From: an uncultured Spirochaetales bacterium
GTDB taxonomy: Bacteria > UBP6 > UBA1177
Direction: 5' to 3'
Length of the DNA stretch: 64,000 nt
NCBI GenBank assembly: GCA_964630905.1
Contig: CAZVWR010000006.1
Coordinates: forward strand, 6,232 to 70,231
The notes below the pieces were generated by a model. The model saw only the letters and a list, made by a program, of their open reading frames with translations. It was not told the DNA's origin and ran no database searches. A program made the translations under genes and the position numbers. How positions within the stretch are numbered: the stretch's first letter is position 1; every line of letters starts with the position of its first letter. This document shows positions 3,720 to 42,440 of this stretch, piece after piece.

Positions 3720-3807
3720 GGAGGAGTGGCCGAGTGGTCGATGGCGGCGGTCTTGAAAACCGTTGACGTGAGAGCGTCCGTGGGTTCGAATCCTACCTCC
3801 TCCGCCA
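3720..3807 (+). tRNA. tRNA-Ser (anticodon UGA)
   Basis: Acceptor GGAGGAG/CTCCTCC, anticodon loop CTTGAAA, long variable arm, GGTTCGAATCC T-loop, encoded CCA. Confidence 0.9.
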
Positions 3808-3824
3808 TTATTTTTTGTGTTTGC

Positions 3825-3916
<92 letters not shown>

Positions 3917-3929
3917 TTTTTTTTTGAGT

Positions 3930-4006
3930 GTGCCCATAGCTCAACTGGATAGAGCGTCTGGCTACGGACCAGGAGGCTGGGGGTTCGAATCCTCCTGGGC
4001 ACGCCA
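3930..4006 (+). tRNA. tRNA-Arg (anticodon ACG)
   Basis: 77 nt. Acceptor GTGCCCA/TGGGCAC, anticodon loop CTACGGA, GGTTCGAATCC T-loop, encoded CCA. Confidence 0.9.
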
Positions 4007-4018
4007 CGGTCTTTCAGG

Positions 4019-4516
4019 ATGGAAAGAGAAATCAGTTATATGAAACAGGCACTTGAACTTGCTCAGGAAGCAGGTCTGCAGGGAGAAGTTCCTGTAGGTG
4101 CTGTAGTGGTCTTTGAAAATAGAGTGATCGGAAAAGGATATAACAGGAGAGAATCGACCAATTCTCCATTGTCCCATGCAGAGATCGAGGCTATTCTTGA
4201 AGCTTCAGAAAACATCGGAAGCTGGAGACTTGAAGATTGTGAGCTTTATGTAACACTTGAGCCGTGCATCATGTGCAGCGGTGCAATTCTCCAGTCAAGG
4301 ATCAAAAGAGTTGTTTTCGGCCCCAGAGACCCGAAAGCTGGAGCTGTCAGATCTCTTTACAATCTCCTTGAGGATAAAAGGTTGAATCATAGAGTTGAAG
4401 TGGTAGAAGGAGTTTTGTCTGATGAATGTTCTTCAATACTTACCGGTTTTTTCAAAGATATAAGAAGCCGTCAGAAGAACGCAGTGTTAAAGACAGAGCA
4501 GAATAATGACTTTTAA
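4019..4516 (+). CDS. tadA: tRNA-specific adenosine deaminase
   Basis: 165 aa. Cytidine/deoxycytidylate deaminase zinc motifs HAEIEAI and EPCIMCSGAI. TadA-like length. Confidence 0.9.
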   Translation: MEREISYMKQALELAQEAGLQGEVPVGAVVVFENRVIGKGYNRRESTNSPLSHAEIEAILEASENIGSWRLEDCELYVTLEPCIMCSGAILQSRIKRVVFGPRDPKAGAVRSLYNLLEDKRLNHRVEVVEGVLSDECSSILTGFFKDIRSRQKNAVLKTEQNNDF

Positions 4517-4518
4517 GC

Positions 4519-4610
4519 GGAGAGATGTCCGAGTGGTTGAAGGAGCCTGACTCGAAATCAGGTGCGCTCTTTACGGGGTGCCTGGGGTTCGAATCCCTAT
4601 CTCTCCGCCA
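4519..4610 (+). tRNA. tRNA-Ser (anticodon CGA)
   Basis: Acceptor GGAGAGA/TCTCTCC, anticodon stem CCTGA/TCAGG with loop CTCGAAA, long variable arm, encoded CCA. Confidence 0.9.
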
Positions 4611-4634
4611 TATTTTCTTTTCGATCTTTTAAAC

Positions 4635-4725
<91 letters not shown>

Positions 4726-4738
4726 TTTTTTTTATTAT

Positions 4739-4831
4739 GGCCGGGTACTGTACAACAAGCCCCGCAAACCCCGTCAGGTCCGAAAGGAAGCAGCGGTAGC
4801 GGATCGTTTGTGTGTTGCAGTTTTCCCGGCC
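4739..4831 (+). ncRNA. ffs: signal recognition particle RNA (small/4.5S type)
   Basis: Contains the conserved domain IV motif GTCAGGTCCGAAAGGAAGCAGC with a GNRA tetraloop. Terminal helix GGCCGGG...CCCGGCC is followed by a T-run (TTCATTTTTT). Confidence 0.8.
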
Positions 4832-4884
4832 TTCATTTTTTAAGGTTATTTTCAGAAAAATGACACTCGAGTTCACTTTTTGCA

Positions 4885-4912
4885 TTGACTAAATCAGTAA
4901 AATTGTTAGAAT
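4885..4912 (+). promoter_or_regulatory. putative sigma70-type promoter
   Basis: TTGACT (4885..4890), 16-nt spacer, TAGAAT (4907..4912), about 30 nt upstream of ATG 4944. Confidence 0.35.
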
Positions 4913-4943
4913 TCTGTTGATTGTGTGTTATTGGAGAGAAAAT

Positions 4944-8188: not shown

Positions 8189-11100
8189 TTATTCAATAAC
8201 AGTCAGTTTTTGTGACTGGTCGTTATGTTTCTGTTCGGGGTTGTAGTATGGGTTGACTGATGATTCGCCGGTCGCCCCTTCCATCGGATAGTCTGCAAGA
8301 AGTTCAAAATTGAATGTAGCGGTCGCGCCGTTTGCGATGTGGTTGATGTAGAGTATCACCTGTCTTGGTGTGGTTTCATATTTCTGGAGATATGTTCCTG
8401 CTTCAACAGCGGTATCAAGCTGTGCCGGAATAAGTGTGAATCCCGGTGCGATACCGATGCTTGCAAGGACCATGCTCACTCCGGCGTCACTTACATTTTT
8501 AACTGTGACTGTGACTCCGACTGTATCGTTCACATTCAGAGAGGTCTTGTCATAGTTGACATCAATCGTGAGCGGACCTGTTGAAGTGTCATCTTCACCC
8601 GGAATGTACCATGTTGCGGTTGCCTGATACATCATGCTTCCTTCACCTGTGAAATTGATCTCGATATTGTTCTCACCGTAAACAAGGTGCTCTTTGAAAT
8701 CGATCAGACGGAGCACATCAGAGTTTTCAGGAGTGATGACTATTGTGGTTTCAGGTGAACCGTTAGCACTCACTTTTACAGTCGCGTCAGCTTCTGAAGT
8801 GCCGTTGTTGAGCGATTCGATCATGAATCTCAATGCAAGGATAGTTCCCTGAGTCGTTGACCAGTTGCCGAAAGAATCCTTCTGTCTTACAAGCCAGTTA
8901 AGTATCTGACCTGCAACATCTGAATATCCGCCTTTGTCAAGAAGGAGAAGTCCTATAAGAGCGGTCGTTTCAAGATTTGCTCCATCGCCACTGCTGTAAG
9001 TCTCTGTATTTACAGTCTGTTCCCAGTGTGCTCCACCTTCTTCATCTTCGATTTTCTTGTCGAGGATGTCGCTGATGAGCTTATTTATGACAGTTGCACT
9101 TCCACCATTTTTTACAAGTGCGATAGCGGTCATTGCCATTGAATATGTGTCTTCAGCTTTTGAAGCGTTGTTTTCAAGATATTTCACAGCGTTCTTTCTT
9201 GCAGTTTCCTCTTTGTCAGCCCTTGAAAGTGCCCATGCTCCATAAGCTGTTGTTCTTAAAAGTGAATTCTCAAAATTATTTATCGCCCCTTCAGCAATTC
9301 CGCCGCTAGTAGGAATAAATGACCCGTCAGAGTTCTGTTTTGAAGCCATCCATGCCGCAGTTCTTGTGATAATGGCAGGATCGACCTCGTGGACTGCGCT
9401 CATGTCAACAAATTCAAGAAGTCCGTAAGCAGTGAGAACAAAATGGGCAGGTTCAGCACCGAACCATTCAAATCCGCCGCCAGTGACTTCATAAGTGAGA
9501 AGCCGCTGATAACCCTGAGTTATGAAATCCCTTGCCTTAAGCTCGATCTCAGGGGTCAGGGTATCCGTTGCGATCATGTACTGAAGCACAAGAATGTTCG
9601 GATATGTAGCAGATGAAGTCTGTTCAAAACAGCCGTAAGGCATCTGGAACATCGAATCAAGCCCTTCAACAGCCTGAGACATGATGCCGGGATAGATTTT
9701 AACAAAAAGTTCAGCACTGTCAGCGATCGCATTTTCAGGAATTGTGATCGTAATGCTCTTGTTTCCGTTCAGCAGTGCACTTTCCGATTTGTCAGCCATT
9801 ATTCCGTCAGGTTTTACGGTGACACTTCTTTTCACAGCGTCTGACATTTTTGAACCGTGTGCGAATACTGTGAGAGAGTGTTTTCCTATTTTAAGAACTT
9901 TTATCGGGAAATATGCGGCTGAAACCGAATTTGCCGGAACTGTCACTTCAATCGCGGATGAGCCTGTCATTTCAAACCACTCCTCAGAATCGGCTTCAAG
10001 AGTAATTTTCTGAGATTCATTAAGGTAATTGTAAATTCCGACAGGAACAGCAACTTCATCGTTTTGCGTAAGGAAAACAGGGAAATCAATGTCAACGAAG
10101 AAATCCTGGAAAACTCTTATGCTGTCAAGAGAACTGCCAAGACCGCCGTTCAAGCTGTTGGCAAGAGATGTAACTCTCCATGTGGTAATTGAGTCAGCCA
10201 TCAGCACTTCAAGTTCAGCGACGCCCTTTTCATCAGTAATGAGCTGAGGATTGTAGTAAAGCGTTTCAGGGAACCATTCACGAACTTTAACTTTTGCATT
10301 CGGTTCACCGCCGGTATCCCCTGAATCACCGCTGTCTCCGTTATCTTCAGGATCCCCGCCCGTTGCCGCTTCATCGCTTACCTCACCGTTATCCATTTCG
10401 CCCCATTGTGCTTCACAGACCTTTATTTCCATTGTGATGTCGTCTTTTGTTCCTGCTGTTTCATCAGGTCCTGCCGAGATCAGAGTTGCAAGAGCTTTTT
10501 CGTAATCTGCGGTTCCGGGAGTTCCCGACATGATGTTGTCCCACGGGTCGGTGTTTTCAGGTTTTGCGAGTATTTTATCAAGTTCTTCCTCAGAGATCGC
10601 TCCGTTTGTGCAGTCAGAAGTTTCGCCGTTATCAAGAGCTTTAAAAATTGCATCAGCTTTTGCTTTTGCCGCCGCCGTAGAAGCTGAAAGATATGCGTTT
10701 TCAGATTGGGAGTAGTCATCCGCCGCAACGCCGTGGCTTAAATTGCCCGCATTTCCTGCAAAGAACGCATCGGCTTTCTTTTCAATCTCTTCTGCCTGTT
10801 CTTCATCTTCAACAGGGGTTACGATCTCTTCATAACTTGTGCCGTAGATCGCATAAGTCGATTCCATCACAGAACTTTCGATGTTGAAATATGTCTGTTC
10901 CATTCCCGGAATGAAATCCATCACATGGAAGACGGCTTCATCAACCATTGCAACTCCGAGTGCCGCAACGACCGGTTTACCTTCAGCATCTTTTATTTTG
11001 AACTGCGCTTTTGCCGTTTCTCTAGGCTTATATTCTTCTTTATCAGTAGAGAATTCGATATTGAGCGAACTTGATCTTCTTACATACACTCCCTTGGAGG

Positions 11101-13072
11101 AACGGATGATATTTCCTTCTTTTGTAAGGTAATAAGCAAGAATTTCAACAGGTCCGTGCATCGTTTCATCAAGAGTGATGTCTGTGCTCCCTTTTCCTTC
11201 CTTGAATTCGACAGTCTTCATCAGTCTTATCTGCCCGTCTGCTATCACATCGATATACGCTCTGTCGGGAAGCATTGACGGCTGCGGCATTTCAGGGTCG
11301 TATCCCGTAAAAATGTTGACGGTCATCGTATCTCCGGTGCCATAAATAGACGAATCTGTCGAAAGGAATACAAATTCGCTGTTGTCGTCTTTGGTGAAAA
11401 TAACATCGCTTTCAAATGTCTTGTCTTCGTATTTTACTGTAACTTTTACAGCTTCAGAATCTGTGAGAGCCATTTTAAACTCTGCAAAACCGCTTTCGCC
11501 GACAGTTATCTTTTCGGAATTTTCACCTGCTTTTACAGTGACTTCAGCCGCGAGCGGAGTTCCGTTCGGATCGGTGAGTATGAAGTACATATCCTGCTCA
11601 ATTCCGGGAAGCATTTTTCCTGCGGCCGGAACAAGTGTTGCGATCACAGGGGCTTTTACAACTTTTATTGTTTTAACTGTGGACTGTTCGTGGTCTGCGG
11701 TATCTGTGACCGTTATCTCAAATTTTACGGTTGCCTTTCCCTGATCAAGCTCGCTTCCTGTAAAATAGTCAGGAAGTTTTGCCTCAAAATTATATTTTCC
11801 ATCTTTAGTCAGAGTTGCATCAATTATTTTCACAGTATTTTCAGACACATCGAAAGTTTTTACTTCGATATGGACACTTCCTCCGCTCACCGGCTTTCCG
11901 TAGAAATAATTTGAAGTTATAGATCCTTTTACAGTTTCGCCGGGCATGTAAAAGCCTTTGTCGGCTTTGAAATCTATCCCGAACTTAGGAAGCACATATC
12001 TTTCGACAGTTATGGTCTTTTCAGAAGAAATATTCCCGTCAACTAAAGCAGAAATTGTGTAATTTCCGAGATTTACAAGATTTGCAAGTTTGAAGTCGGC
12101 GGCAAATATTCCGTATCCGCTGGTTTTTCCCTTTTCTTTATATACTTTATTGCCTTTCGGGTCGGTTATTTCAAGAGTTATGTCGCTGTCTGTGATCGGG
12201 TTCTTTGCAGGAAGTTCAAGTGAAAGTGTCCTGATGTGAATTGTCTGACCGGGCTGATAGAGAGGTTTGTCGGTTGTCAGAAGTATTTTGCTCAGTTGTT
12301 CCGCAACAACTTCAGTTTCAACGCTTCTTGTTCCGTATGCGGTTTCAGTTGTCACCACCATTTTAAGGGTGCCGAAAACCGATTCATCAACAGAAACAGG
12401 GACGGATGCCATTCCGGATTCATCAGTTTTTGCAGTGAATGTTCCGACAAGTTCCTCTCCGCTGAAAAGTTCGACATTGAGGTCTTTGTTCATGATAGGG
12501 TCGCCGCTCATTATCGGGTCGCCAGAAAGGACATCATTAACAAAAAGACGGAAAATTGATTCTTCACCCTTAATTATCTGAGCACTTCCAAGTATCTGGG
12601 TTTTTATTCTGGGTGATATCCGAAACATTGAAAGTTTGCCGTTGAGGTCGTAATCACTCCATTTTATTGAATATTTCATTAACAGGTTCGAAAGGTCCTC
12701 AAGCCCCGGAACATAATCTTTTCCGAGTTCGATTACTATTTCATTTGTAAGTGGAGTAATTGTCGATTTCACAGATCTTGTCAGATTTTCCACATTCGTT
12801 CCGTCAAGCTTGTCCACATTGACTGAAATATCGGCCATGATCGAAGGTGAGCTGCTTTCAAGCTGTGCAGGAATGTTAAGAAGGTATTTTTCCGATTCAT
12901 AGGAAATATAGATCTTAGCTTCATTTACTTCAAGAGGCCCTACTTTTATGACCCGGTCGCTTTCATCGTCAAAAGGATTTTTCTTTTTTCCTGTCTTAGA
13001 AGCCGAATTTTCACAGGAAAAAAGAAAAACAGCAAAAATCGTCATAATTACTGTCAAAAACTTAACTTTCAT
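8189..13072 (-). CDS. bacterial alpha-2-macroglobulin family lipoprotein
   Basis: 1627 aa. Lipobox (VFLFSC). Acidic bait-like insert (GGDPEDNGDSGDSGDTGGEPN) followed by WFPETLYYNP. Thioester-type motif MPYGCFEQT. Overall MG-domain-scale length. Confidence 0.9.
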   Translation of the reverse strand: MKVKFLTVIMTIFAVFLFSCENSASKTGKKKNPFDDESDRVIKVGPLEVNEAKIYISYESEKYLLNIPAQLESSSPSIMADISVNVDKLDGTNVENLTRSVKSTITPLTNEIVIELGKDYVPGLEDLSNLLMKYSIKWSDYDLNGKLSMFRISPRIKTQILGSAQIIKGEESIFRLFVNDVLSGDPIMSGDPIMNKDLNVELFSGEELVGTFTAKTDESGMASVPVSVDESVFGTLKMVVTTETAYGTRSVETEVVAEQLSKILLTTDKPLYQPGQTIHIRTLSLELPAKNPITDSDITLEITDPKGNKVYKEKGKTSGYGIFAADFKLANLVNLGNYTISALVDGNISSEKTITVERYVLPKFGIDFKADKGFYMPGETVKGSITSNYFYGKPVSGGSVHIEVKTFDVSENTVKIIDATLTKDGKYNFEAKLPDYFTGSELDQGKATVKFEITVTDTADHEQSTVKTIKVVKAPVIATLVPAAGKMLPGIEQDMYFILTDPNGTPLAAEVTVKAGENSEKITVGESGFAEFKMALTDSEAVKVTVKYEDKTFESDVIFTKDDNSEFVFLSTDSSIYGTGDTMTVNIFTGYDPEMPQPSMLPDRAYIDVIADGQIRLMKTVEFKEGKGSTDITLDETMHGPVEILAYYLTKEGNIIRSSKGVYVRRSSSLNIEFSTDKEEYKPRETAKAQFKIKDAEGKPVVAALGVAMVDEAVFHVMDFIPGMEQTYFNIESSVMESTYAIYGTSYEEIVTPVEDEEQAEEIEKKADAFFAGNAGNLSHGVAADDYSQSENAYLSASTAAAKAKADAIFKALDNGETSDCTNGAISEEELDKILAKPENTDPWDNIMSGTPGTADYEKALATLISAGPDETAGTKDDITMEIKVCEAQWGEMDNGEVSDEAATGGDPEDNGDSGDSGDTGGEPNAKVKVREWFPETLYYNPQLITDEKGVAELEVLMADSITTWRVTSLANSLNGGLGSSLDSIRVFQDFFVDIDFPVFLTQNDEVAVPVGIYNYLNESQKITLEADSEEWFEMTGSSAIEVTVPANSVSAAYFPIKVLKIGKHSLTVFAHGSKMSDAVKRSVTVKPDGIMADKSESALLNGNKSITITIPENAIADSAELFVKIYPGIMSQAVEGLDSMFQMPYGCFEQTSSATYPNILVLQYMIATDTLTPEIELKARDFITQGYQRLLTYEVTGGGFEWFGAEPAHFVLTAYGLLEFVDMSAVHEVDPAIITRTAAWMASKQNSDGSFIPTSGGIAEGAINNFENSLLRTTAYGAWALSRADKEETARKNAVKYLENNASKAEDTYSMAMTAIALVKNGGSATVINKLISDILDKKIEDEEGGAHWEQTVNTETYSSGDGANLETTALIGLLLLDKGGYSDVAGQILNWLVRQKDSFGNWSTTQGTILALRFMIESLNNGTSEADATVKVSANGSPETTIVITPENSDVLRLIDFKEHLVYGENNIEINFTGEGSMMYQATATWYIPGEDDTSTGPLTIDVNYDKTSLNVNDTVGVTVTVKNVSDAGVSMVLASIGIAPGFTLIPAQLDTAVEAGTYLQKYETTPRQVILYINHIANGATATFNFELLADYPMEGATGESSVNPYYNPEQKHNDQSQKLTVIE

Positions 13073-24897: not shown

Positions 24898-25155
24898 ATG
24901 CCGGAAATCAGCAGATTTTATGGAATTTTGATTTTGATGCTTTACAGTGATCACAATCCGCCACATTTTCATGCTAAATATGGTGAATATGAAGTGACTG
25001 TAGATATTGAAACCGGTATTGTTACCGGCAGCATGCCAAAAAGGGCTCTTTCTTTAATCCTTGAATGGTATGAGATTCATGTTGATGAATTAAAGGAGTT
25101 GTGGAAACTGGCTGAGTCAAGAAGTCCGCTTAAAAAAGTTCCGCCATTGCCTTAA
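24898..25155 (+). CDS. DUF4160 family protein
   Basis: 85 aa. N-terminal MPEISRFYGILILMLYSDHNPPHFHAKYGEYE is characteristic of DUF4160. Confidence 0.8.
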   Translation: MPEISRFYGILILMLYSDHNPPHFHAKYGEYEVTVDIETGIVTGSMPKRALSLILEWYEIHVDELKELWKLAESRSPLKKVPPLP

Positions 25156-25166: not shown

Positions 25167-25421
25167 ATGTTTCTGAGTGTTAAAAGTGCAATTTATTTAA
25201 ATAGTTACACTTTGAGACTTACATTCAGTGACGGTGTTGTGAAAGATGTAGATCTTTCAAATGAGCTGTACGGACAGATTTTTTCACCGTTAAAAGACAT
25301 CTCTTTTTTTAAAAAGGTGAAAGTCTCTTCAGAGCTTGGAACAATATTCTGGCCGAATGATGCTGATTTTGCTCCTGAATTTCTTTATGAGATCGGTGTT
25401 CCCGCTGATGAAGCCGCTTAA
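25167..25421 (+). CDS. DUF2442 family protein
   Basis: 84 aa. LRLTFSDGVVKDVDLS...GTIFWPNDADFAPEFLY is typical of DUF2442. Starts 11 nt after the DUF4160 gene. Confidence 0.8.
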   Translation: MFLSVKSAIYLNSYTLRLTFSDGVVKDVDLSNELYGQIFSPLKDISFFKKVKVSSELGTIFWPNDADFAPEFLYEIGVPADEAA

Positions 25422-27254: not shown

Positions 27255-27411
27255 GATAATCTTATCCATATTCTTGCAAAATTAATCTAATTGCTGCATT
27301 ATCTATTGTTGGCTAAATCTGATGGAGCGTAGAATTTTGGATGCACTTGACAAAACTTGCTTTATATGATAAGAAATTGTTTGTAACAGTTCATTGAAAA
27401 ATGGAGTGAAA

Positions 27412-27774
27412 ATGCGAAAAGTTGAATTGCTGGTAACGCCTGACGGAAAATGTCCGGTAAGAGATTTTATTGACACATTGCCGATTAAAACACAGGCAAA
27501 AACTTATGCGACATTTAAAATTGTGCAAAACATGAGGATCGTTCCTGAAAAATTCTTTAAAAAGATGACAGGTTCTGACCTTTACGAAATACGAGTTTTG
27601 CATGATAAGATGCTTTACCGGTATCTTTCGTTTTTTCACAACGGAAATATCGTTATTGTGGCTCACGGATTTGAAAAAAGAAGTAAAAAAACTCCTGAGC
27701 GTGAAATGACAACAGCAATTGAACGGATGAAAGGTTTTAAAGAACAGTTCAAGGAGGTAAGTCATGAAAAATAA
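27412..27774 (+). CDS. type II toxin, RelE/ParE superfamily (Gp49/HigB-like)
   Basis: ORF track 27394..27774. ATG 27412 follows GGAGTG. LLVTPDGKCPVRDFIDTLP...LYEIRVLHDKMLYRYLSFFHNGNIVIVAHGFEKRSKKTP is typical of the phage Gp49-like toxin family. Confidence 0.8.
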   Translation: MRKVELLVTPDGKCPVRDFIDTLPIKTQAKTYATFKIVQNMRIVPEKFFKKMTGSDLYEIRVLHDKMLYRYLSFFHNGNIVIVAHGFEKRSKKTPEREMTTAIERMKGFKEQFKEVSHEK

Positions 27775-28069
27775 AGGTTACAAAACAGAAAGTCTTGACA
27801 AAACAATTGAAAGATTTGTTGATAAAAACAGTGCAAAAGAACAGCTTTTAAATGAAATGTACGAGGAAATGAAACTTGGTATCATCATGGATAATTTAAG
27901 AGAACTCAGAAAGAAAAAAGGGCTTACTCTCAAAGAAGTTGCAGAACTTATGAATTCATCAGAAAGTGCGATGTCGAGACTTGAGAAACAAATTAAAAAT
28001 GTAACAATCTCAACGCTTGCCAGATATGCCAAAGTGCTCGGTCGAAAGATCGAAATTAGGGTCGTGTAA
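27764..28069 (+). CDS. HTH (XRE-type) antitoxin
   Basis: 101 aa. Overlaps the toxin gene by 11 nt. HTH segment LRELRKKKGLTLKEVAELMNSSESAMSRLE. Confidence 0.8.
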   Translation: MKNKGYKTESLDKTIERFVDKNSAKEQLLNEMYEEMKLGIIMDNLRELRKKKGLTLKEVAELMNSSESAMSRLEKQIKNVTISTLARYAKVLGRKIEIRVV

Positions 28070-28215: not shown

Positions 28216-28244
28216 TTGACACCTTAATCCACTGAAGCTATACT
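28216..28244 (+). promoter_or_regulatory. putative sigma70-type promoter
   Basis: TTGACA (28216..28221), 17-nt spacer, TATACT (28239..28244), about 30 nt upstream of ATG 28276. Confidence 0.4.
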
Positions 28245-28275: not shown

Positions 28276-31200
28276 ATGCATCAGTTCATCAGAATAACAA
28301 ACGGTTGTGAGAACAATCTGAAAAATGTGAATGTTGAGATAGAAAAAGGGAAGTTCACGGTTGTTACGGGAGTTTCGGGAAGCGGTAAATCATCGTTGGT
28401 TTATGACACAATATTCAAGGAATCTCAGCGGTTATACTTTTCTACATTTCCAAGCTGGAGCAGAAAATATCTCGGTGTCGCAAACCGCCCGAAAGCTGAT
28501 TCAATTACAGGTCTTGATGCTGCAATTGCGATAGATCAGAAAAGTTCTGTTTCAAATCCGAAGTCGACTGTCGGAACTTTTTCAGGGATTTATGATCATC
28601 TGCGGCTCCTTTTCGCAAGGTTTGGAAGTGATGGAGTTCAAACAGGCGGTTTTTCCCGTTCACTTTTTTCATTCAATCTCGAAAAAGGATGGTGTGAAAA
28701 GTGCAAAGGTTTCGGTGTTGAAGATTTTCTTGACCCTGATCTCATTGTTGCAGAGTGGTCAAAATCGGTTAGAGAGCGGGCGTTGAAGATAACAGCACCA
28801 AACGGATACATCATCTATTCACAGGTGACTCTTGAAGTGCTTGACACAGTTTTCAAAGAGCACGGTTTTTCAATTGACACTCCGCTTGATCAACTGACTG
28901 AAGAACAGCTCAATGTCATGTTCTACGGCTCAGACCGGATAAAAGTGCCGTTTGGAAAGCACACTCTTGAAAGCAGGATGAAATGGACAGGCATCACAGT
29001 AAAACCAAGAGAAGAGGGGTTCTATCCCGGTTTCATTAATGTTATGAACGACATTTTAAAAAGAGACCGCAACGCAAATATCTTAAGATTCGTCCGGTCA
29101 GTTCCGTGTTCAGAGTGCAACGGGTCGCGACTTAACCCGAAAGTGCTCAAAGTGCTTTACAGATCAAGGAACATTGCTGAAATTGCCGACATGACTTTTG
29201 TGAAACTTGTTGAATTTCTTGAAGGTGTTGAAATAAAGAACGATGGTGAAAAAACACTTGTGCGGCAGATAGAAAAAATGGTAAAAACACTTATAAATTC
29301 AGGGCTTTCGTATCTTACTCTTTCGAGGACGGCAGACTCTCTTTCATCAGGCGAAGTTCAGCGGATCAGGATATCAGCGTTATCGGAAAGTGCCATTCGC
29401 GGGGCAACTTTTATTTTTGATGAACCCACTGCCGGTCTTCACGGTTTAGAATCGGGAGCGGTGATCGAACTCATTAAAAAGATAAGAGATAACGGCAACA
29501 CAGTGATAGCAGTCGAGCACGATATCAATACAATTCTCAATGCCGACAACATAATTGAAACAGGCCCCGGCGGTGGAGTCAACGGCGGAAACATAATCTT
29601 TTCAGGCAGTTTGCACGATTTTTGTGCCTTTGGGAAAGATATTATCTCTCCGACATTAAGAGCAATGCTTGAAAAAAGAGTTCCAAACGATACTGCATCT
29701 GAAAAAGATGAAATGATTCTAAGCAATTGCAACATTAATAATCTTGAAAATGTGACAGCGGTATTTAAGTCAGGTTCCATAAATGCGATATGCGGTGTAA
29801 GCGGATCGGGAAAGCGGTCGCTGATGAATTGTCTGATCGCAAAATTTGAAAAAGAATCAGCACCTTACATAAAGATAGACAGAACTCCGATAGGCAGAAC
29901 TCCGAGATCAAACCCTGCAACTTACACCGGAATAAGTGACAAAATAAGAGACATTTTCGCGTCACTCGTTTCATCAAAAAAAGCGAATCTTACAAAAAGC
30001 CATTTCTCTTTTAATTCTGAAGTGGGCAGATGCCCAAAATGTGAAGGGGCTGGAGTGATAGAAATAGGAATGAAATTCATGGGTTCTGTCAGAACAGTTT
30101 GTGAACTATGCAATGGAAAAAGATTCAACGATGAAGTTCTGAAAGTAAAATATAAAGATAAGACAATTTCAGATGTGCTGGATTTGTCAGTTGAAGAAGC
30201 CATTGAATTCTTTAAGGAATATCCTCAAATTGCAAAAACGCTCAAGATCCTTGATGATCTTGGCACAGGGTATCTTAAATTAGGACAGACATCTTCATCT
30301 CTTTCGGGCGGAGAAGCGCAGAGAATTAAACTCGCCACACACCTTTCAAAAGCAAAAAGGGGAGGAAATATTCTTTTTGAAGAGCCGTCATCGGGTCTTC
30401 ACTCTCTGGATGTGAAAAAACTCATCTGCGTACTTAAATCAAATATCAGCGAAGGTGATACAATATTTGCCATAGAAAACAATCCCTGCTTTATCATCGA
30501 AAGCGGTCACATCGTTGAACTCGGTCCGGATAGCGGTGAAAATGGAGGTGAAATCGTTTTTTCAGGAAGTCCGCAGGATCTGCTTGAGAAAGGATCGACT
30601 AAAACAGCAGAAGTCATCAGAAACTTTGTCAATAACAGCATGATGTTGACTGGTGTCGGGAATCATCACGATAACTATCTGGAAAAATTGGAGAATGATC
30701 TTGTTATAGAAGGGATTGAAACAAATAACCTTAAAAATATCACGCTGAGAATAAAGACGGGGAAGCTCAATGTTGTTGCGGGGGTTTCAGGCAGCGGCAA
30801 GACAAGTCTTTGTTTTGACACACTTTTTACTGAGTGCATAAACAGTTTTCTTGAAGGTGTTTCACCTTATGTCAAAACACAGATACTTAAAAAAAGAACT
30901 GATGAGATTTCAAAAAGTGAAGGGTTGATGGCACCTGTGGGGATTTCGGGGAAATTTACTGCAACAGGGGTCAGATCTACAGCCGGCACAGTCAGCGGAC
31001 TTTATGAGATACTCAGAATGCTCTATTCAAGGGCAGGAAAAAATAAAACCGGTGAGCCGTGCAGATTTTCGGCAGGGGACTTTTCATTTAATTCTGAAAC
31101 AGGGTCATGTGAAAAATGTCACGGAACAGCGGTAATTCTGCAGACAGACATAAAAAAAATTGTCACAAATCCTGAAAAGTCTTTCATCAACGGAGCCATA

Positions 31201-32961
31201 GACGGAACAAAGCAGGGAAAATTTTATGGTGAGGCATCGGGTCAGTTTGTTCACACCCTCATTGCAGCAGGGAATGAACTGAACATTGATTTTTCAAGGC
31301 CGGTTGCGGAACTTTCTGAAAATGAATTGAATATTGCTCTTTTTGGAGTTGCCGACAGAGAGTTTGCAGTTTCATGGCATTTTAAGAGGGGTACAGTTGA
31401 GGGGACTCACAATTTCAAAGGAAAGTGGACAGGGTTTGCAAATCTCATAACTGATGAATTTTACAGGTCAATCGGCAATAAAAATGAAAGTGTATTAAGA
31501 GATCTGATGGAAGAGGTCGTCTGTCCTGAATGTAATGGAAAGCGACTGAAAAAGGAACTGCTTGAAGTTGAATTTGCTAAAACTGAAGTTGCAGCGATAA
31601 ACAGTTTTTCAGCGATAGAATTAAAAAAGTTCATTGATAACGGACTGAATATGACAGAGCTTGAAAAAGCTGTTTTAAATACGCTGAAACCCGAAATGGA
31701 AAGCATACTCAACCGTCTGATAAAACTGGGACTTTCCCACATCTCAATTGACAGGGCAACTTCGACGATGTCACTTGGTGAAAGAGAACGGCTGAAGCTC
31801 GCAAAGAGCTGTCACGACGGACTGACAAACATAATTTACATAATTGATGAGCCGTCAAGAGGGGTAAGTGTAAAAGAGAGTGAAAATCTTGTTTCAATTC
31901 TGCGTGAGCTTACTGAAAAAGGGAACACAGTTGTTGCTGTGGAGCATGAGCCGGCAGTTATAAAATCGGCCGATCACATAATTGAACTTGGACCGGGATC
32001 GGGTCAGAAAGGGGGCGAGATCATTTTTGAAGGAACGGTTGAAAAACTCCTTGAAAAAGAGACTCCCACAGCTTTATCGCTCAAGTTCGTTCCCGAAAAA
32101 AGGATGTTGCATCTATCTGAATTTATTGAATTTAAAGTTGATGGTCCAAGAAATATTAAAAAGTTTGACCTCAAAATTCCATTAAAAGCGACAACTGTCA
32201 TCACAGGAGTTTCAGGAAGCGGCAAGACAACACTTTTAAAGGAAGTGATAGCGAAACGACTTGCATGCAAAGAAATTTTCTATAGCGAAAACCGTCCATT
32301 TCTGAGTACAACAAAACTTTCAACTGTTGCAACGATCACCGGCTTAAGCGATCTTGTTAAGAAGAAATTCGGCAAAGGTTTTAAAATAACTAAAGATAAT
32401 CTCTGCAAAAACTGCGGAGGGAGCGGTTACACAACTGTTTCACTTGATTATATCAGCGATTCTGAATCTCTCTGTCCTGATTGTGAAGGTTCCGGATACC
32501 GTGGCGATATACTCAATCAGAAATATAGAGGAAAGAACATATATGAACTCCTTTCAATGGAAGTCGATACAGCTCTCAAATTTTTTGCTGATGATAGCAA
32601 GATCATGAAAATATTGAATATTATGAATGACTGCGGACTCGGTTATCTCCATCTTGATCAGCAGACGAATTCCCTTTCAACAGGAGAAGTTCAGCGGCTT
32701 TCGCTTGCCGTCACCCTTTCAAAGTTTCTCCTGGGAAATGATTCAGAAAACAAGTTCTTTTTATTTGACGAACCGTCAACAGGACTCCATTTTTCAGACA
32801 TCACGCATCTGCTCAAGCTTTTCAGATCACTCAATGAAAAAGGGCACACAGTCATAATTGCAGAACATCGAAGTCAGATAATTCAAAATGCAGACTATAT
32901 CGTTGAACTCGGACCCGGAAGCGGCAAAGAGGGCGGGGAACTGCTTAATCAATCTACTTAA
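28276..32961 (+). CDS. tandem-duplicated UvrA-like ABC ATPase (four nucleotide-binding modules)
   Basis: 1561 aa. Four Walker A motifs (GVSGSGKS / GVSGSGKR / GVSGSGKT / GVSGSGKT). Four signature motifs (LSSGEVQR, LSGGEAQR, MSLGERER, LSTGEVQR). Four Walker B motifs (FDEPTAGLH, FEEPSSGLH, IDEPSRGVS, FDEPSTGLH). UvrA-type CxxC zinc modules (CEKCKGFG, CSECNGSR, CPKCEGAG, CELCNGKR, CEKCHGTA, CPECNGKR, CKNCGGSG, CPDCEGSG). Confidence 0.85.
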   Translation: MHQFIRITNGCENNLKNVNVEIEKGKFTVVTGVSGSGKSSLVYDTIFKESQRLYFSTFPSWSRKYLGVANRPKADSITGLDAAIAIDQKSSVSNPKSTVGTFSGIYDHLRLLFARFGSDGVQTGGFSRSLFSFNLEKGWCEKCKGFGVEDFLDPDLIVAEWSKSVRERALKITAPNGYIIYSQVTLEVLDTVFKEHGFSIDTPLDQLTEEQLNVMFYGSDRIKVPFGKHTLESRMKWTGITVKPREEGFYPGFINVMNDILKRDRNANILRFVRSVPCSECNGSRLNPKVLKVLYRSRNIAEIADMTFVKLVEFLEGVEIKNDGEKTLVRQIEKMVKTLINSGLSYLTLSRTADSLSSGEVQRIRISALSESAIRGATFIFDEPTAGLHGLESGAVIELIKKIRDNGNTVIAVEHDINTILNADNIIETGPGGGVNGGNIIFSGSLHDFCAFGKDIISPTLRAMLEKRVPNDTASEKDEMILSNCNINNLENVTAVFKSGSINAICGVSGSGKRSLMNCLIAKFEKESAPYIKIDRTPIGRTPRSNPATYTGISDKIRDIFASLVSSKKANLTKSHFSFNSEVGRCPKCEGAGVIEIGMKFMGSVRTVCELCNGKRFNDEVLKVKYKDKTISDVLDLSVEEAIEFFKEYPQIAKTLKILDDLGTGYLKLGQTSSSLSGGEAQRIKLATHLSKAKRGGNILFEEPSSGLHSLDVKKLICVLKSNISEGDTIFAIENNPCFIIESGHIVELGPDSGENGGEIVFSGSPQDLLEKGSTKTAEVIRNFVNNSMMLTGVGNHHDNYLEKLENDLVIEGIETNNLKNITLRIKTGKLNVVAGVSGSGKTSLCFDTLFTECINSFLEGVSPYVKTQILKKRTDEISKSEGLMAPVGISGKFTATGVRSTAGTVSGLYEILRMLYSRAGKNKTGEPCRFSAGDFSFNSETGSCEKCHGTAVILQTDIKKIVTNPEKSFINGAIDGTKQGKFYGEASGQFVHTLIAAGNELNIDFSRPVAELSENELNIALFGVADREFAVSWHFKRGTVEGTHNFKGKWTGFANLITDEFYRSIGNKNESVLRDLMEEVVCPECNGKRLKKELLEVEFAKTEVAAINSFSAIELKKFIDNGLNMTELEKAVLNTLKPEMESILNRLIKLGLSHISIDRATSTMSLGERERLKLAKSCHDGLTNIIYIIDEPSRGVSVKESENLVSILRELTEKGNTVVAVEHEPAVIKSADHIIELGPGSGQKGGEIIFEGTVEKLLEKETPTALSLKFVPEKRMLHLSEFIEFKVDGPRNIKKFDLKIPLKATTVITGVSGSGKTTLLKEVIAKRLACKEIFYSENRPFLSTTKLSTVATITGLSDLVKKKFGKGFKITKDNLCKNCGGSGYTTVSLDYISDSESLCPDCEGSGYRGDILNQKYRGKNIYELLSMEVDTALKFFADDSKIMKILNIMNDCGLGYLHLDQQTNSLSTGEVQRLSLAVTLSKFLLGNDSENKFFLFDEPSTGLHFSDITHLLKLFRSLNEKGHTVIIAEHRSQIIQNADYIVELGPGSGKEGGELLNQST

Positions 32962-37790: not shown

Positions 37791-40700
37791 TTATGAATCG
37801 AGCGTGCAGCCCTCATCTATCTGACCGTTACAGTTATTGTCTTTTTCATCACAAATTTCAGGTTCCGGAATGCAGCCGGGAGGAGGAGGACAACCTTCAT
37901 CAATTTCACCGTCACAATCGTTATCTATTCCGTCTTCACATATTTCAGCCTCTGGAACACAGACATCGCAACCCTCGTCAATGTCACCGTCACAGTCGTT
38001 ATCTTTTGTGTCACAGCTTTCCGGTTCAGGGACACATGTCGGATCGCATCCTTCATCTATCTTTCCATCGCAATCGTTGTCTTTGTTATCTCCGCATATT
38101 TCAGGGCTTGGAATACATGTCGGGCAACCTTCGTCCACATTACCGTCACAGTCATTATCTGTTTTATCCCAGCAGATTTCCGGTTTCGGTATGCAACCGC
38201 CGCTTCCAGGGCATCCTTCATCAACAGATCCGTTACAGTCGTTATCTATTCCGTCACCGCAAACTTCAGGACCTGTCGGGACACAGCTTGGGGTACATCC
38301 TTCATCGATCATGCTGTTGCAGTCGTTATCTATTCCGTCACCGCAAACTTCAGGACCGGTGGGAGTACAATCAGGAGTTGTCGGGCATCCTTCATCTATC
38401 TGTCCGTTGCAATTGTTATCTATTCCGTCACCGCAAACTTCAGGACCTGTCGGGACACAGCCGGAATAAGTGCAGCCCTCATCAACTATGTCATCACAGT
38501 CATTGTCAAATCCGTCACAGACTTCAGGCTGAGGAATACAAGTCGGACAACCATTGTCAACAATTTCGTCGCAGTCATTATCAAGTCCGTCTCCGCAGAT
38601 CTCCGGTTCGACAATACATCCGCCCGGATCGCAGTTTTCATCGATCAGTCCGTTGCAGTTGTTGTCAATGCCGTCATCACAGACTTCGGGGCCTGTCGGA
38701 ATACATGCAGGACATCCATCATCAATGATTCCGTCGCAGTCGTTATCAGTATTATCTCCGCAGATCTCCCATCCGCAGTCACATGTTATTCCGTCATCAA
38801 CGAGTCCATTACAGTTGTTGTCCTGATAGTCACACACTTCATTTGTCGGGGTGCAAGTAACCTTACATGCAACTCTAATGTTTACACCTACTTTGGAAGG
38901 ATCACTTGAAGAAGAAGCATAACTCTTGAGGTCGTTGCATGACTGTCCATTCAGTTCAAGAGTCTGTGTTCCGCCATCATATGTCCATCCGTTCGGAGTC
39001 CCGGGTGCTACAGAATAGAAAGTTCCGTTATTATCAATTCTTACCTGCATTCTTGTCGGGTCGTCGTTGCCTCCGTTAAGAGGAACTGTGACAGTGCACG
39101 GTATCATGGAGGCAGAAATTGAATTAAGTGCCGCAATGATGCTGTTGGTGTCAGTGATCTTATACCATGTGGTTGTTCCGCCTGCCGCAGCAAGTTGTAC
39201 CATATTGCTTTCGTTAACTCCTGCAAATCCCATATAATAAACTTTTATTCCGGCATTTTTAAGATTCGTTGTGTAAGTCAGTGCGTCAGACATACTGAAA
39301 TCGGCTGATTCAGCGTCTGTAATGACAACAACTGCCTTTCCTCTATCTGCAGAAAGGGTATCAGGTGTAAATTCGTAGTATTGTCTGATCCTTGTGTTGT
39401 TAAGTGCATAAGGAAGCGGTGTTCCTCCGTTAGGGGAGACATTGCACGGACTAAAATTGGCAAATGTAACATTATTTCTTAGATCGATACACTCTTTCGG
39501 TTCATCACTGTCACTGCTTGTTCCCGGAAAGTATGCTGCTCCGACATTAAAATCTGTTGAGAGCTGAGTGGCTTTTGAATTAAGAGCAGACATCAGCACT
39601 TCCCATCTGGTTCCGGGATCATTGCATTCACCCCATCCGTCATCTCCGTTTGTGCAGGCATCCATCGATCCCGAATTATCAAGAAGGAAGTAAACATTGG
39701 GCTTGATCCTTGTTCCGGTGACATCAGCGGTTTCACAAGGTGTCGGGACAGTTATTGCTTCACAGGCATCACCGATCCCGTTTGCAGGATTTGTGTCAAC
39801 CTGATTAAAGTTTGCTATATTGGGGCAGTTGTCACAGACATCACCCACACCGTCACCGTCTGCATCAGCCTGTCCTGCATTTGAAACTTCAGGGCAGTTG
39901 TCATAAGGGTTTTCAACTCCGTCACCGTCAATATCATTGTCATACGGTTCCTCTTCACAGGCATCACCGGTTCCGTTACTGTTTGAATCTGCCTGATTGA
40001 AGTTCGCGGCAAGAGGACAGTTGTCACAGACATCGCCTACACCGTCACCGTCAAAATCAGCCTGTCCTGAATTGCTTACGGATGGGCAGTTATCAACAGA
40101 ATTAGGAATAGTGTCTCCATCGCTGTCAGCACATGCGGAAGGATCCTGATTTGCATTTGCAACAGTAGGACAGTTGTCGCACACATTGCCGACTTTGTCA
40201 CCGTCGCTGTCTTCCTGATCCGCATTGGCAAGGGTCGGGCAGTTGTCTTCCCAGTCATAAAGTCCGTCATTGTCTCCATCTGCATCAGCACAGACTGTCG
40301 GATCCTGATCGGCATTCGGAATTGCAGGACAGTTGTCACAGGCGTTGCCGACTTTATCTCCATCTGTATCAAGCTGATCAGCATTGGCAACGGAAGGGCA
40401 GTTGTCTTCCCAGTCAAAAAGCCCGTCTTTATCCGAATCAGCCGCTTCACAGGTCGCTATATCCTGATTGGCATTCGGTATAAGAGGACAATTGTCGCAT
40501 GCGTCACCGACACCGTCTTTATCTGTATCTGTCTGTGAAGGATTTGAAACCGTCGGACAGTTGTCGTCCCAGTTGACAAATCCGTCACCATCGACATCAA
40601 TTGTTGCAGATTCACAGGCATTACCTGTTCCGTTGCTGTTACTGTCTGCCTGATTGGCATTTGCAATTGCAGGACAGTTGTCACAGACATTTCCCACCCC

Positions 40701-42440
40701 GTCCTTGTCTCCATCTTCCTGTCCGGGATTATAAACATCTGGACAGTTATCGTCCCAGTTGTAAAGTCCGTCGTCGTCAGGATCTGCATCTTCACAGGCG
40801 TCACCGATACCATTGCTGTTTGAATCTGTCTGAAGAGCATTAGCGATCGGAACGCAGTTGTCACAGGCATCGCCTATTCCATCACCGTCAGTATCTGTCT
40901 GAGCGTCATTGGAAACAGTCGGGCAGTTGTCATAAATATCATCTATACCGTCGCTGTCGCTATCGGTAACAGCAGGTTCACAGGCATTTCCAGTGCCGTT
41001 GGTGTCATCATCAAGCTGGTTGTAATTTGCCACATTTGGACAGTTGTCACAGACATCGCCGATCCCGTCTTTATCTGTATCAAGCTGATCATTGTTTGCA
41101 ATATCCGGACAGTTGTCGGTAGCATCAACAATTCCGTCACTGTCGCTATCGGTATTAAGCGGACTTTCCTGACAGACATCACCCATTCCGTTGCTGTCAG
41201 AATCAAGCTGATCATAATTCGCAAAAAGAGGACAGTTGTCACATGCATCTCCAAGAAGGTCGCCGTCGCTGTCTTTCTGGTCAGAATTCGGAACTGTCGG
41301 ACAATTATCAGCACTGTCAAGGATACCGTCGCTATCTGTGTCAACATTCTCACAGGCGTTTCCTTCTCCATCGGTATCATCATCAAGCTGATCGGCATTT
41401 GCAACGGCAGGGCAGTTATCACAGGCATCACCCACACCGTCACCGTCTGAATCGACCTGACCGGGATTATGAGTGTTTTCGCAGTTGTCAGATTCGTCAG
41501 GAATACCGTCCCCATCCTTGTCATTGGGTTCGCAGGCGTTCCCTACACCGTTTCCGTCATAGTCAAGCTGTTTTGAATTTGCTACTTCAGGACAGTTATC
41601 GCAAATATCACCGATTCCGTCTTTGTCAAGATCTTCCTGATCCGGATTGGATGCATATCTGCAGTTATCATTAAAATCAAGGATTCCATCCTCATCTGTA
41701 TCAACAGGTTCACAAGCGTCACCTACATCGTTGGAATCCGAGTTTATCTGATCGTGGTTTGCTGTATAGACGCAATTGTCACATACATCACCAATGCCGT
41801 CACTGTCTGTATCAAGCTGATCTGAGTTTTCGATGAAAGGGCAGTTGTCAACAAGATCTCTGAATCCGTCATGGTCTGTGTCAAGAAGGAGTGTATCGTT
41901 CTGGCAGACATCACCGACACCGTCCTTATCTGTATCGGTCTGTTTAATATTGGCGTGATTCGGGCAGTTGTCACAGACATCACCTTTTCTGTCTTTGTCA
42001 GCATCGAGCTGGTCGGCATTTTTGATGTCAGGACAATTATCATTGCAATCCATAATCCCGTCACCGTCTGTATCAAAGTCAAGAACATCGCATCCGCAAA
42101 TTCCGGGATCTGTTTTTTCAGGATTGTCGGGACAGAGGTCGATTATGTCTTCATCTGTTTCAACAATATTGTCCGGGTCTTCATTGTCAACAGGTTCATC
42201 ATCATCCGGAATAACCTCGTTATCTTCAGGCTGATTATCATCTTTTTTCACAGTATCCTTGTCGGGAACTGTAACTTCATCATCTGTTACAGGAAGGGAG
42301 TCTGACGAACCTTCATCATCGGTAATGTTGTTTGTGTCATTACCGCCTGTGTTGTCATCAACCTTGCTTTTTTTCCCGCTGTCACAGGATGCAAAGAAAA
42401 TAATTGAAAAGATTACAATAATAAAAGAAAGTTTCTTCAT
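37791..42440 (-). CDS. giant lipoprotein: thrombospondin type-3 repeats + vWA domain + MopE-like DNDCDG repeats
   Basis: 1549 aa. Lipobox FFASC. By my count, 26 DNC-containing TSP3-like units (DxDxDGxGDxCDNCPxxxNxxQxD). vWA MIDAS YFLLDNSGSMD. 13 C-terminal units of the type CxPxPEICGDGxDNDCDGxIDEGC. Confidence 0.85.
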   Translation of the reverse strand: MKKLSFIIVIFSIIFFASCDSGKKSKVDDNTGGNDTNNITDDEGSSDSLPVTDDEVTVPDKDTVKKDDNQPEDNEVIPDDDEPVDNEDPDNIVETDEDIIDLCPDNPEKTDPGICGCDVLDFDTDGDGIMDCNDNCPDIKNADQLDADKDRKGDVCDNCPNHANIKQTDTDKDGVGDVCQNDTLLLDTDHDGFRDLVDNCPFIENSDQLDTDSDGIGDVCDNCVYTANHDQINSDSNDVGDACEPVDTDEDGILDFNDNCRYASNPDQEDLDKDGIGDICDNCPEVANSKQLDYDGNGVGNACEPNDKDGDGIPDESDNCENTHNPGQVDSDGDGVGDACDNCPAVANADQLDDDTDGEGNACENVDTDSDGILDSADNCPTVPNSDQKDSDGDLLGDACDNCPLFANYDQLDSDSNGMGDVCQESPLNTDSDSDGIVDATDNCPDIANNDQLDTDKDGIGDVCDNCPNVANYNQLDDDTNGTGNACEPAVTDSDSDGIDDIYDNCPTVSNDAQTDTDGDGIGDACDNCVPIANALQTDSNSNGIGDACEDADPDDDGLYNWDDNCPDVYNPGQEDGDKDGVGNVCDNCPAIANANQADSNSNGTGNACESATIDVDGDGFVNWDDNCPTVSNPSQTDTDKDGVGDACDNCPLIPNANQDIATCEAADSDKDGLFDWEDNCPSVANADQLDTDGDKVGNACDNCPAIPNADQDPTVCADADGDNDGLYDWEDNCPTLANADQEDSDGDKVGNVCDNCPTVANANQDPSACADSDGDTIPNSVDNCPSVSNSGQADFDGDGVGDVCDNCPLAANFNQADSNSNGTGDACEEEPYDNDIDGDGVENPYDNCPEVSNAGQADADGDGVGDVCDNCPNIANFNQVDTNPANGIGDACEAITVPTPCETADVTGTRIKPNVYFLLDNSGSMDACTNGDDGWGECNDPGTRWEVLMSALNSKATQLSTDFNVGAAYFPGTSSDSDEPKECIDLRNNVTFANFSPCNVSPNGGTPLPYALNNTRIRQYYEFTPDTLSADRGKAVVVITDAESADFSMSDALTYTTNLKNAGIKVYYMGFAGVNESNMVQLAAAGGTTTWYKITDTNSIIAALNSISASMIPCTVTVPLNGGNDDPTRMQVRIDNNGTFYSVAPGTPNGWTYDGGTQTLELNGQSCNDLKSYASSSSDPSKVGVNIRVACKVTCTPTNEVCDYQDNNCNGLVDDGITCDCGWEICGDNTDNDCDGIIDDGCPACIPTGPEVCDDGIDNNCNGLIDENCDPGGCIVEPEICGDGLDNDCDEIVDNGCPTCIPQPEVCDGFDNDCDDIVDEGCTYSGCVPTGPEVCGDGIDNNCNGQIDEGCPTTPDCTPTGPEVCGDGIDNDCNSMIDEGCTPSCVPTGPEVCGDGIDNDCNGSVDEGCPGSGGCIPKPEICWDKTDNDCDGNVDEGCPTCIPSPEICGDNKDNDCDGKIDEGCDPTCVPEPESCDTKDNDCDGDIDEGCDVCVPEAEICEDGIDNDCDGEIDEGCPPPPGCIPEPEICDEKDNNCNGQIDEGCTLDS

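Follow-up and report, generated by a model that had tools for sequence, protein, structure and literature searches.

A single-chain double UvrA-like protein without UvrB-binding domains and with a degenerate ATP site in an uncultured Spirochaetales bacterium

Background

A gene on contig CAZVWR010000006.1 of an uncultured Spirochaetales bacterium (assembly GCA_964630905.1), located in a 64,000-nucleotide stretch referred to hereafter as the window, encodes two UvrA-like units joined in one polypeptide. The locus raises the question whether such a double UvrA is a component of classical UvrABC excision repair or serves a different process on DNA. The explanation favoured here, to which a probability only a little better than even is assigned, is that the protein represents a single-chain UvrA paralogue of class II type which scans DNA independently of UvrB, with ATP used at a smaller, specialised set of sites. 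Among the features that speak for this reading are the absence of the UvrB-binding domain from both units, the unequal state of its four ATP sites and a family-specific motif in one insertion domain.

UvrA is a homodimer and hence its four ATP sites cannot be changed singly. A natural single-chain UvrA with one decayed site would provide a means to dissect the roles of the proximal and the distal sites. The family to which the protein belongs is common in Bacteroidota and in some unclassified bacteria of anaerobic digesters and the rumen.

Two UvrA-like units in one polypeptide

The overall organisation of the gene and of its zinc modules is as follows.

28276..32961, + strand: whole open reading frame, single and with an ATG start, encoding a fused double UvrA-like protein of 1,561 residues plus stop
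28276..30630, + strand: N half (residues 1-785), a complete UvrA-like unit of class II architecture (alignments, AlphaFold2 model)
30631..30693, + strand: linker between the halves, about 21 residues, non-conserved (alignment)
30694..32958, + strand: C half (residues 807-1561), a further UvrA-like unit with class II architecture, more divergent than the first (alignments, AlphaFold2 model)
28693..29118, + strand: zinc module (CxxC at residues 140 and 278) around the N-half insertion (DNA-binding) domain (PF17755, motif scan, alignment)
30031..30111, + strand: C-terminal zinc finger of half 1 (CxxC at residues 586 and 609; motif scan, alignment)
31108..31533, + strand: zinc module (CxxC at residues 945 and 1083) around the C-half insertion domain, which is without the N-half motif (motif scan, alignment, AlphaFold2)
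32404..32484, + strand: C-terminal zinc finger of half 2 (CxxC at residues 1377 and 1400; CxxCxGxG type; Pfam, motif scan)

A motif scan of the 1,561-residue protein yielded Walker A, signature and Walker B motifs, four of each, as well as eight CxxC pairs at residues 140, 278, 586, 609, 945, 1083, 1377 and 1400, which make up four zinc modules, two per half. Each unit contains tandem ABC modules and an insertion domain flanked by CxxC pairs (residues 140/278 and 945/1083), as expected of the UvrA superfamily. Pfam searches with the whole protein identified ABC_tran and, in two stretches, PF17755 (the UvrA DNA-binding/insertion domain), and the NCBIfam models TIGR00630 (1240.8 bits, in five stretches) and NF001503 (UvrA, 1232.8 bits) matched it as well. 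The two halves can be aligned colinearly over 773 residues with 32% identity (E = 4e-114), and UvrA entries of the PDB were matched with E-values of ~1e-168 to 2e-168 by half 1 and ~1e-122 to 1e-120 by half 2. The presence of two complete UvrA-like units in one chain, put forward in a preliminary description of this DNA, is thus borne out by the colinear halves, the four ABC modules and the eight CxxC pairs. By the alignment measure the linker is 22 residues long in the query, with a family median of 18 and a range of 0-74.

Structures were predicted with AlphaFold2 (AF2) for the N half and the C half separately. The mean predicted local distance difference test (pLDDT) and predicted template modelling (pTM) scores are 87.0 and 0.82 for the N half, and 86.7 and 0.78 for the C half. 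The top structural match of the N-half model is the Deinococcus radiodurans UvrA2 (TM score 0.85).

At the C-terminus (32935-32958), the query and its closest relatives, P0001 and P0002, stop 4-7 residues past the last GPxxGxxxG motif. Most other family members, like UvrA of classes I and II, continue into a C-terminal tail of about 25 residues, which is absent in these three proteins.

[quoted passage not shown]

The Walker A motif and the first signature are spaced by 324 residues in half 1 and by 329 residues in half 2; the corresponding spacing of Escherichia coli UvrA is 456 residues (31 to 487). The measured shortfall of 127-132 residues agrees with the ~120-130 residues estimated in the preliminary description, and the loss of the UvrB-binding insert from both halves, which had been suggested there by this spacing, is confirmed by alignments, a domain of ~150 residues being absent. 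In the alignment of half 1 to Bacillus stearothermophilus UvrA (2R6F), query residues 10-125 correspond to 29-144 and query residues 120-447 to 274-596, so that about 130 residues (~145-273) are passed over. Residues ~121-266 of Thermotoga maritima UvrA (3PIH) are passed over likewise by half 2. Both halves were also aligned with seven class II UvrA encoded on plasmids and with the class I UvrA of E. coli, Enterococcus and Bacillus, and in this multiple alignment residues ~118-268 of E. coli UvrA are without a counterpart in either half. The zinc module flanking the insertion domain and the C-terminal zinc finger are kept in each half. The position of the missing segment in half 1 is given below.

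28630..28656, + strand: junction (residues ~119-127) where class I UvrA bears its UvrB-binding domain plus zinc module 1; ~150 residues are gone (alignments)

Of the 30 Pfam matches of the query, the best 25 do not include the model of the UvrB-binding domain (PF17760). The domains precomputed for the relative P0001, which is 93% identical, do not include it either, while it is listed for two other relatives, P0040 and P0044. Class I UvrA carries the UvrB-binding domain with its zinc module after Walker A 1 and ahead of the insertion domain, and neither half does so. Taken alone, each half also scores below the equivalog cut-offs, half 1 with 709.3 bits and half 2 with 548 bits for TIGR00630 (cut-off 729.8), and with 723.9 and 524.9 bits, respectively, for NF001503 (cut-off 1147). 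The cut-offs are passed only by the whole protein, through the summing of its two halves. Since the halves are below the equivalog score and without the UvrB-binding domain, annotations as 'excinuclease UvrA', which imply excision repair, are probably misleading for this family.

Each half displays the class II domain layout described for Ecm16 and UvrA2 (PMC9328131; PMC10192343). In common with class II UvrA (UvrA2, 2VF7; Ecm16, 7SH1; DrrC), each half combines two ABC modules with an insertion domain and two zinc modules and is without a UvrB-binding domain or the first zinc module. Half 1 aligns to Ecm16 in a single stretch. However, class II UvrA are homodimers with equivalent sites, built of units of ~750-890 residues (755-888 in the reference sequences used here), whereas the query consists of two non-identical units in 1,561 residues, one of them with an ATP site predicted to be dead, and its gene lies outside any biosynthetic gene cluster. 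The strongest sequence matches of both halves are to class I UvrA (E. coli; B. stearothermophilus, 2R6F; Clostridium thermocellum, 9GXK), with which they have the ABC motifs, the insertion domain and the C-terminal zinc finger in common. They differ from it in that the UvrB-binding domain of ~150 residues is missing together with zinc module 1, that they are fused where class I UvrA is dimeric, and that domains 2, 3 and 4 have non-canonical Q-loops, several further motifs being non-canonical as well.

ATP sites and their asymmetry

In UvrA the proximal site consists of ATP-binding domain I together with signature domain II, and the distal site of ATP-binding domain II together with signature domain I; both types of site are required, and the activity of the distal site favours dimerisation (PMC6486640). 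The motifs of the four ABC modules of the query are listed below.

28369..28392, + strand: Walker A 1, GVSGSGKS, residue 32, canonical; forms proximal site 1 with signature 2 (motif scan)
29341..29355, + strand: signature 1, LSSGE, residue 356; distal site 1 partner of the degenerate Walker A 2 (motif scan)
29791..29817, + strand: Walker A 2 of domain II in half 1, CGVSGSGKR (GVSGSGKR at residue 506), degenerate, Ser/Thr replaced by Arg (motif scan)
30301..30315, + strand: signature 2, LSGGE, residue 676, canonical; identical in 111 of 121 family members (motif scan, alignment)
30370..30390, + strand: Walker B of domain II in half 1, ILFEEPS, degenerate, Asp replaced by Glu (motif scan)
30472..30480, + strand: H-loop of domain II in half 1, IEN, degenerate, His replaced by Asn (alignment)
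30781..30804, + strand: Walker A 3, GVSGSGKT, residue 836 (motif scan)
31768..31782, + strand: signature 3, MSLGE, residue 1165, non-canonical; distal site 2 partner of Walker A 4 (motif scan)
32206..32229, + strand: Walker A 4, GVSGSGKT, residue 1311 (motif scan)
32674..32688, + strand: signature 4, LSTGE, residue 1467; proximal site 2 partner of Walker A 3 (motif scan)

Combined into sites, these motifs give the following picture. Every element of proximal site 1 is canonical, from Walker A 1 through the Q-loop (IDQ), Walker B (FDEP) and the H-loop (VEH) to signature 2 (LSGGE). Every catalytic element of distal site 1 is degenerate (Walker A GSGK-R, Q-loop IDRTP with Gln replaced by Arg, Walker B FEEP and H-loop IEN). 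Proximal site 2 (domain 3 with signature 4 LSTGE and Q-loop ISGKF) and distal site 2 (domain 4 with signature 3 MSLGE and Q-loop SENRP) keep Walker A, Walker B and the H-loop and have a non-canonical signature and Q-loop. From these substitutions, the distal ATP site of half 1 is predicted to be dead through the changes in domain 2.

Conservation of the motifs was counted in 121 aligned family sequences. The Ser/Thr of Walker A 2 is absent from all 26 sequences closest to the query (at least 47% identity), which constitute its subclade; most of these 26 also carry the Asp to Glu change in Walker B, and many the His to Asn change in the H-loop. In the most decayed relatives Walker A 2 is unrecognisable (KTSFEKR) and its partner signature 1 reads LKSSE or LNSSE, a joint decay that is predicted for partners in one ATP site. 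Four canonical sites are retained in most of the remaining, Bacteroidales-type members. An asymmetry of the ATPase sites had been proposed in the preliminary description and is supported, the strongest asymmetry being that of domain 2 in half 1. There it had been argued from a degenerate third signature (MSLGERER, IDEPSRGVS); these sequences are present, but the change is mild, with the Ser and the second Gly kept, and the main decay lies in domain II of half 1.

Some heterodimeric or single-chain ABC proteins, mostly membrane transporters, carry one degenerate nucleotide site. The query resembles them, by analogy only, in that non-identical ATPase units are paired, covalently or obligately, and that one site is decayed while a partner site is canonical. 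It differs from them in being a soluble DNA-binding ABC protein with four sites.

Insertion-domain motif and DNA-contact residues

The insertion domains of the two halves differ in a segment that is specific to the family.

28948..29031, + strand: family-specific motif PFGKHTLESRMKWTGITVKPREEGFYPG (residues 225-252) within the N-half insertion domain (alignment)

The core of this motif, PFGKHTLESRMKW.GIT.KPRE, is present in the N half of 119 of the 121 family members. The alignment shows it neither in the C halves nor in the references of class I and class II, and a double UvrA of Ralstonia described below is without it too. Residues 230-242 of the motif form the lowest-confidence segment of the otherwise confident AF2 model of the N half, whereas the insertion domain of the C half is predicted as a confident beta-hairpin. 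Such low confidence is typical of a segment that becomes ordered only upon binding of a partner. The insertion-domain sequence of Ecm16 sets its substrate specificity, that is, the DNA state recognised (PMC10192343), and by this analogy the N-half motif would be the best candidate for the substrate determinant of the family.

In C. thermocellum UvrA, Y62, Q65 and F66 are DNA-inserting residues (PMC12796330). The presumed equivalent positions of the query (28456-28470 and 30868-30882) are occupied by W, K and Y in the N half and by Y, T and Q in the C half, a correspondence (residues 61-65 of each domain I) that rests on the alignment and an inferred numbering offset. This suggests that only the N half keeps both aromatic probes.

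Distribution of the family and origin of the double chain

A search of 5.8 billion proteins identified at least 120 homologue clusters of 1,518-1,768 residues, nearly all of which cover 92-100% of the query at 39-93% identity. The homologues, where named, are called 'excinuclease ABC subunit UvrA' and come from metagenome genomes of Bacteroidales, Bacteroidota, Aminicenantes, Chlorobi and Rhodothermaceae, the majority being from Bacteroidota. An identical 1,561-residue protein is encoded on an independently assembled 10-kb contig of run SRR10083294, and fragments that are 94-95% identical occur in the sludge-digester metagenome genome Go_SlDig_bin_48. Many alignment columns are invariant, among them those of the entire proximal site 1 and of each of the eight CxxC pairs. 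Within the subclade of the query, the mean pairwise identity is 61% for the N half and 54% for the C half, the N halves being the better conserved.

For the phylogenetic analysis, 26 family members were split at the linker and combined with class I, class II and Ralstonia sequences, and a neighbour-joining tree was inferred from 721 well-occupied columns with 100 bootstraps. The N halves form one clade (100/100 bootstraps) and the C halves another (99/100), the query falling with its N half in the former and its C half in the latter, colinear with the family over its full length. The subclade of the query is recovered as monophyletic for its N and its C halves alike (100 and 100), and the N and C clades mirror each other in their branching order. 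With a single clade for either kind of half, it follows that the halves were joined once, long ago and before the family diversified.

The deeper branches are less well resolved in this distance-based tree, in which single-length outgroup references are few. A sister grouping of the N and C clades, which would indicate an internal duplication in place of a fusion of two paralogues, received 48% bootstrap support, and with this small reference sampling the grouping of N, C and class II received 33% and the class II clade 57%. In the shared columns the halves resemble class I UvrA more than they resemble each other or the sampled class II sequences, the similarity of the N halves being 0.44 to class I, 0.37 to the C halves and 0.38 to class II. 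The classification as a UvrA2/DrrC-type paralogue, as given in the preliminary description, thus holds for the class II architecture; the sequences link the protein to UvrA2/DrrC by architecture, and do not demonstrate descent from that lineage, the halves being closer to class I.

Two members of the family, P0040 (1,755 residues) and P0044 (1,768 residues), from Rhodothermaceae/Chlorobi metagenome genomes, have kept PF17760 in the N half and lack it in the C half. Because their N halves, of 946-953 residues and with the UvrB-binding domain, fall inside the N clade, the loss of this domain from the other N halves was probably secondary. P0040 and P0044 may represent an ancestral state, 'class I plus class II', in which one UvrB could be bound.

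Curated resources already contain UvrA of double length (NCBIfam NF001885/PRK00635, a model of 1,809 positions), although the query scores only 811.5 bits against its cut-off of 3054. Another double UvrA is encoded on the Ralstonia solanacearum megaplasmid CP052119.1, where an annotated uvrA product of 1,945 residues (QKM15752.1; locus 660-6497) has four Walker A motifs; half 1 of the query matched 134 Ralstonia plasmid records. Both halves of the Ralstonia protein are of class I length and without the N-half insertion motif, which makes it a different kind of double UvrA. NF001885, the Ralstonia protein and P0040/P0044 share with the query a single polypeptide, four ABC modules and the annotation as UvrA. 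Full-text literature searches returned descriptions of class I, IIa and IIb UvrA and none of fused forms. The query is an ordinary member of an existing, database-annotated and apparently unstudied family, its one unusual feature being the dead ATP site.

Probable function and alternative explanations

Under the explanation favoured here, two UvrA-like units, each with two ABC modules, one DNA-clamping insertion domain and two zinc modules, would be held by the short variable linker as a pseudo-dimer. Loading of UvrB by the double UvrA is most likely impossible, because the UvrB-binding domain is absent in both units. The protein would probably stand outside classical UvrABC excision repair and act as a stand-alone, ATP-driven scanner of duplex DNA. 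Ecm16 functions without UvrA, UvrB, UvrC or UvrD, requires its own ATPase activity and is not interchangeable with UvrA (PMC9328131). By analogy with Ecm16 and DrrC, distorted or ligand-bound DNA would be recognised, and ATP would be used for release or remodelling. The ATP sites of the subclade have diverged to one canonical proximal site, one dead distal site and two sites in half 2 with non-canonical signatures and Q-loops. Once covalently linked, the units plausibly no longer depended on ATP to promote their dimerisation, and one site was thereby free to decay, a course also taken by heterodimeric ABC proteins in which one site is degenerate. What the sequences show directly is the architecture, the missing domains, the state of the motifs and the spread of the family. 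We infer the intramolecular pseudo-dimer, which would mimic the UvrA dimer, as well as the UvrB independence and the substrate, and the same applies to a role in drug or toxin tolerance.

Several observations weigh against this explanation. Signature domain II adds to the UvrA-UvrB interface (PMC6486640), and through it a weak contact of the double UvrA with UvrB would be possible. In the relative P0003, a full-length uvrC gene lies ~2 kb upstream of the double UvrA gene on the opposite strand (locus L011 6049-7833, - strand); this lineage has excision-repair nuclease genes, and the nearby uvrC and the UvrB-binding domain of P0040/P0044 leave room for a family ancestor that may have acted in excision repair. 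No shared neighbours were found among the neighbourhoods of three homologues and the context gives no functional hint; the searchable literature yielded no functional data on any member of the family.

The most probable of the alternatives is that the protein is a working excision-repair damage sensor, a single-chain UvrA that passes lesions to UvrB via another surface. The annotation as UvrA by public pipelines, the scores of the whole protein above the TIGR00630 and NF001503 cut-offs, the uvrC gene ~2 kb from that of a relative, the UvrB-binding domain in the N half of P0040 and P0044 and the contribution of signature domain II to UvrB contact in normal UvrA (PMC6486640) are in its favour. 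Nevertheless it is considered improbable, as the UvrB-binding domain is missing from both halves, each half alone is under the TIGR00630 cut-off (709.3 and 548 against 729.8), class II Ecm16 and UvrA cannot replace each other (PMC9328131) and one distal site is apparently dead, though UvrA needs both types of site (PMC6486640).

The UvrB-independent scanner may be taken one step further, to a naturally asymmetric DNA-scanning machine whose four ATP sites became free to specialise when the two units were joined: one would be a canonical driver, another dead and the remaining two altered. This machine would have a substrate-recognition motif of its own in one of its insertion domains. This more specific proposal is tentative and its truth is doubtful, and a rarer variant of it has the double UvrA as the only UvrA in its lineage. 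If true, the 'degenerate-site heterodimer' logic familiar from ABC transporters would here have its first example in DNA repair, and the protein would be a ready tool for probing the role of each UvrA ATP site.

A component of anti-phage defence, such as a MADS-like or an ABC-ATPase defence module, is a far less probable identity for the protein. PADLOC reports matches to mad3 (313 bits) and mad8 (144 bits), and a toxin-antitoxin-like pair adjoins the gene. However, E. coli UvrA, used as a control, scores 341.6 bits with mad3, above the query, and 124.4 bits with mad8, from which the matches reflect general UvrA homology. No mad-like genes are found nearby, the neighbourhood is not conserved among the homologues and the gene has a promoter-like site of its own. 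Membership in MADS (mad3/mad8) was rejected, the matches being generic and other mad genes lacking in the vicinity.

The chance that the gene is a decaying relic without current function is equally slight. The degeneration of several catalytic motifs and the C-terminal tail shortened in the query and its two closest relatives would fit a relic, but the gene and the rest of the family keep an unbroken reading frame (4.7 kb in the query), many columns do not vary, proximal site 1 and the eight CxxC pairs among them, subclade identity averages 61% (N half) and 54% (C half), and the predicted folds of both halves are confident. Least probable of all is an artefact in which two adjacent uvrA-like genes were merged by misassembly or a sequencing frameshift, for which the unusual length alone speaks and which is refuted by the identical reading frame in an independent assembly, the 94-95% identical fragments in the nearest genome, the at least 120 clusters of the same architecture (1,518-1,768 residues, mostly 92-100% query coverage) and the co-divergence of the N and C halves with mirrored tree topology. 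The relic and the artefact are both effectively excluded.

Genomic surroundings

The features close to the double UvrA gene are listed below.

24898-25155 and 25167-25421, + strand: small DUF4160 and DUF2442 genes, upstream
27394-27774, + strand: Gp49/HigB-like toxin gene, PF05973, with an 11-nt overlap with the next gene
27764-28069, + strand: Cro/C1-type helix-turn-helix (HTH) gene, partner of the Gp49/HigB-like gene
28216..28244, + strand: sigma-70-like promoter match, TTGACA-17-TATACT, 11/12, 32 nt upstream of the ATG (consensus match only)

The Gp49/HigB-like and HTH genes are likely to constitute a toxin-antitoxin pair directly upstream of the UvrA-like gene, and the cassette noted in the preliminary description corresponds to this pair at 27394-28069. 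The location in an accessory strip, also proposed there, is upheld only in part: the toxin-antitoxin-like pair is adjacent, but the GC content around the gene is unremarkable, the flanks are housekeeping in nature and the gene has its own strong promoter-like site. The flanking chromosomal genes include those for glycogen metabolism, a rhodanese, RNase II, a signal peptidase, Aat, ClpS and ClpA. A gene for an Lcl_C protein is also found upstream and the gene downstream is convergent. No uvrB, uvrC or class I uvrA gene is present within the 64-kb window.

The DUF4160/DUF2442 pair resembles another two-gene cassette of the toxin-antitoxin kind. A restriction endonuclease of the GmrSD type (type IV, modification-dependent), for which PADLOC gives strong matches, is encoded at 53651-55450 (+ strand); its gene is situated in the lowest-GC stretch of the window (0.34) and may mark a small defence islet. 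A bacterial alpha-2-macroglobulin of 1,627 residues with MG2, MG3, bait region, TED and receptor-binding domains is encoded at 8189-13072 (- strand), and a similar gene occurs near the double UvrA of the relative P0023 (locus L010 1-3940), probably by coincidence. A protein of 1,549 residues, in which some 20 thrombospondin type 3 repeats occur together with metal-binding motifs of MopE-like kind and a VWA domain, is encoded at 37791-42440 (- strand), in the part of the window with the highest GC content (0.47-0.48).

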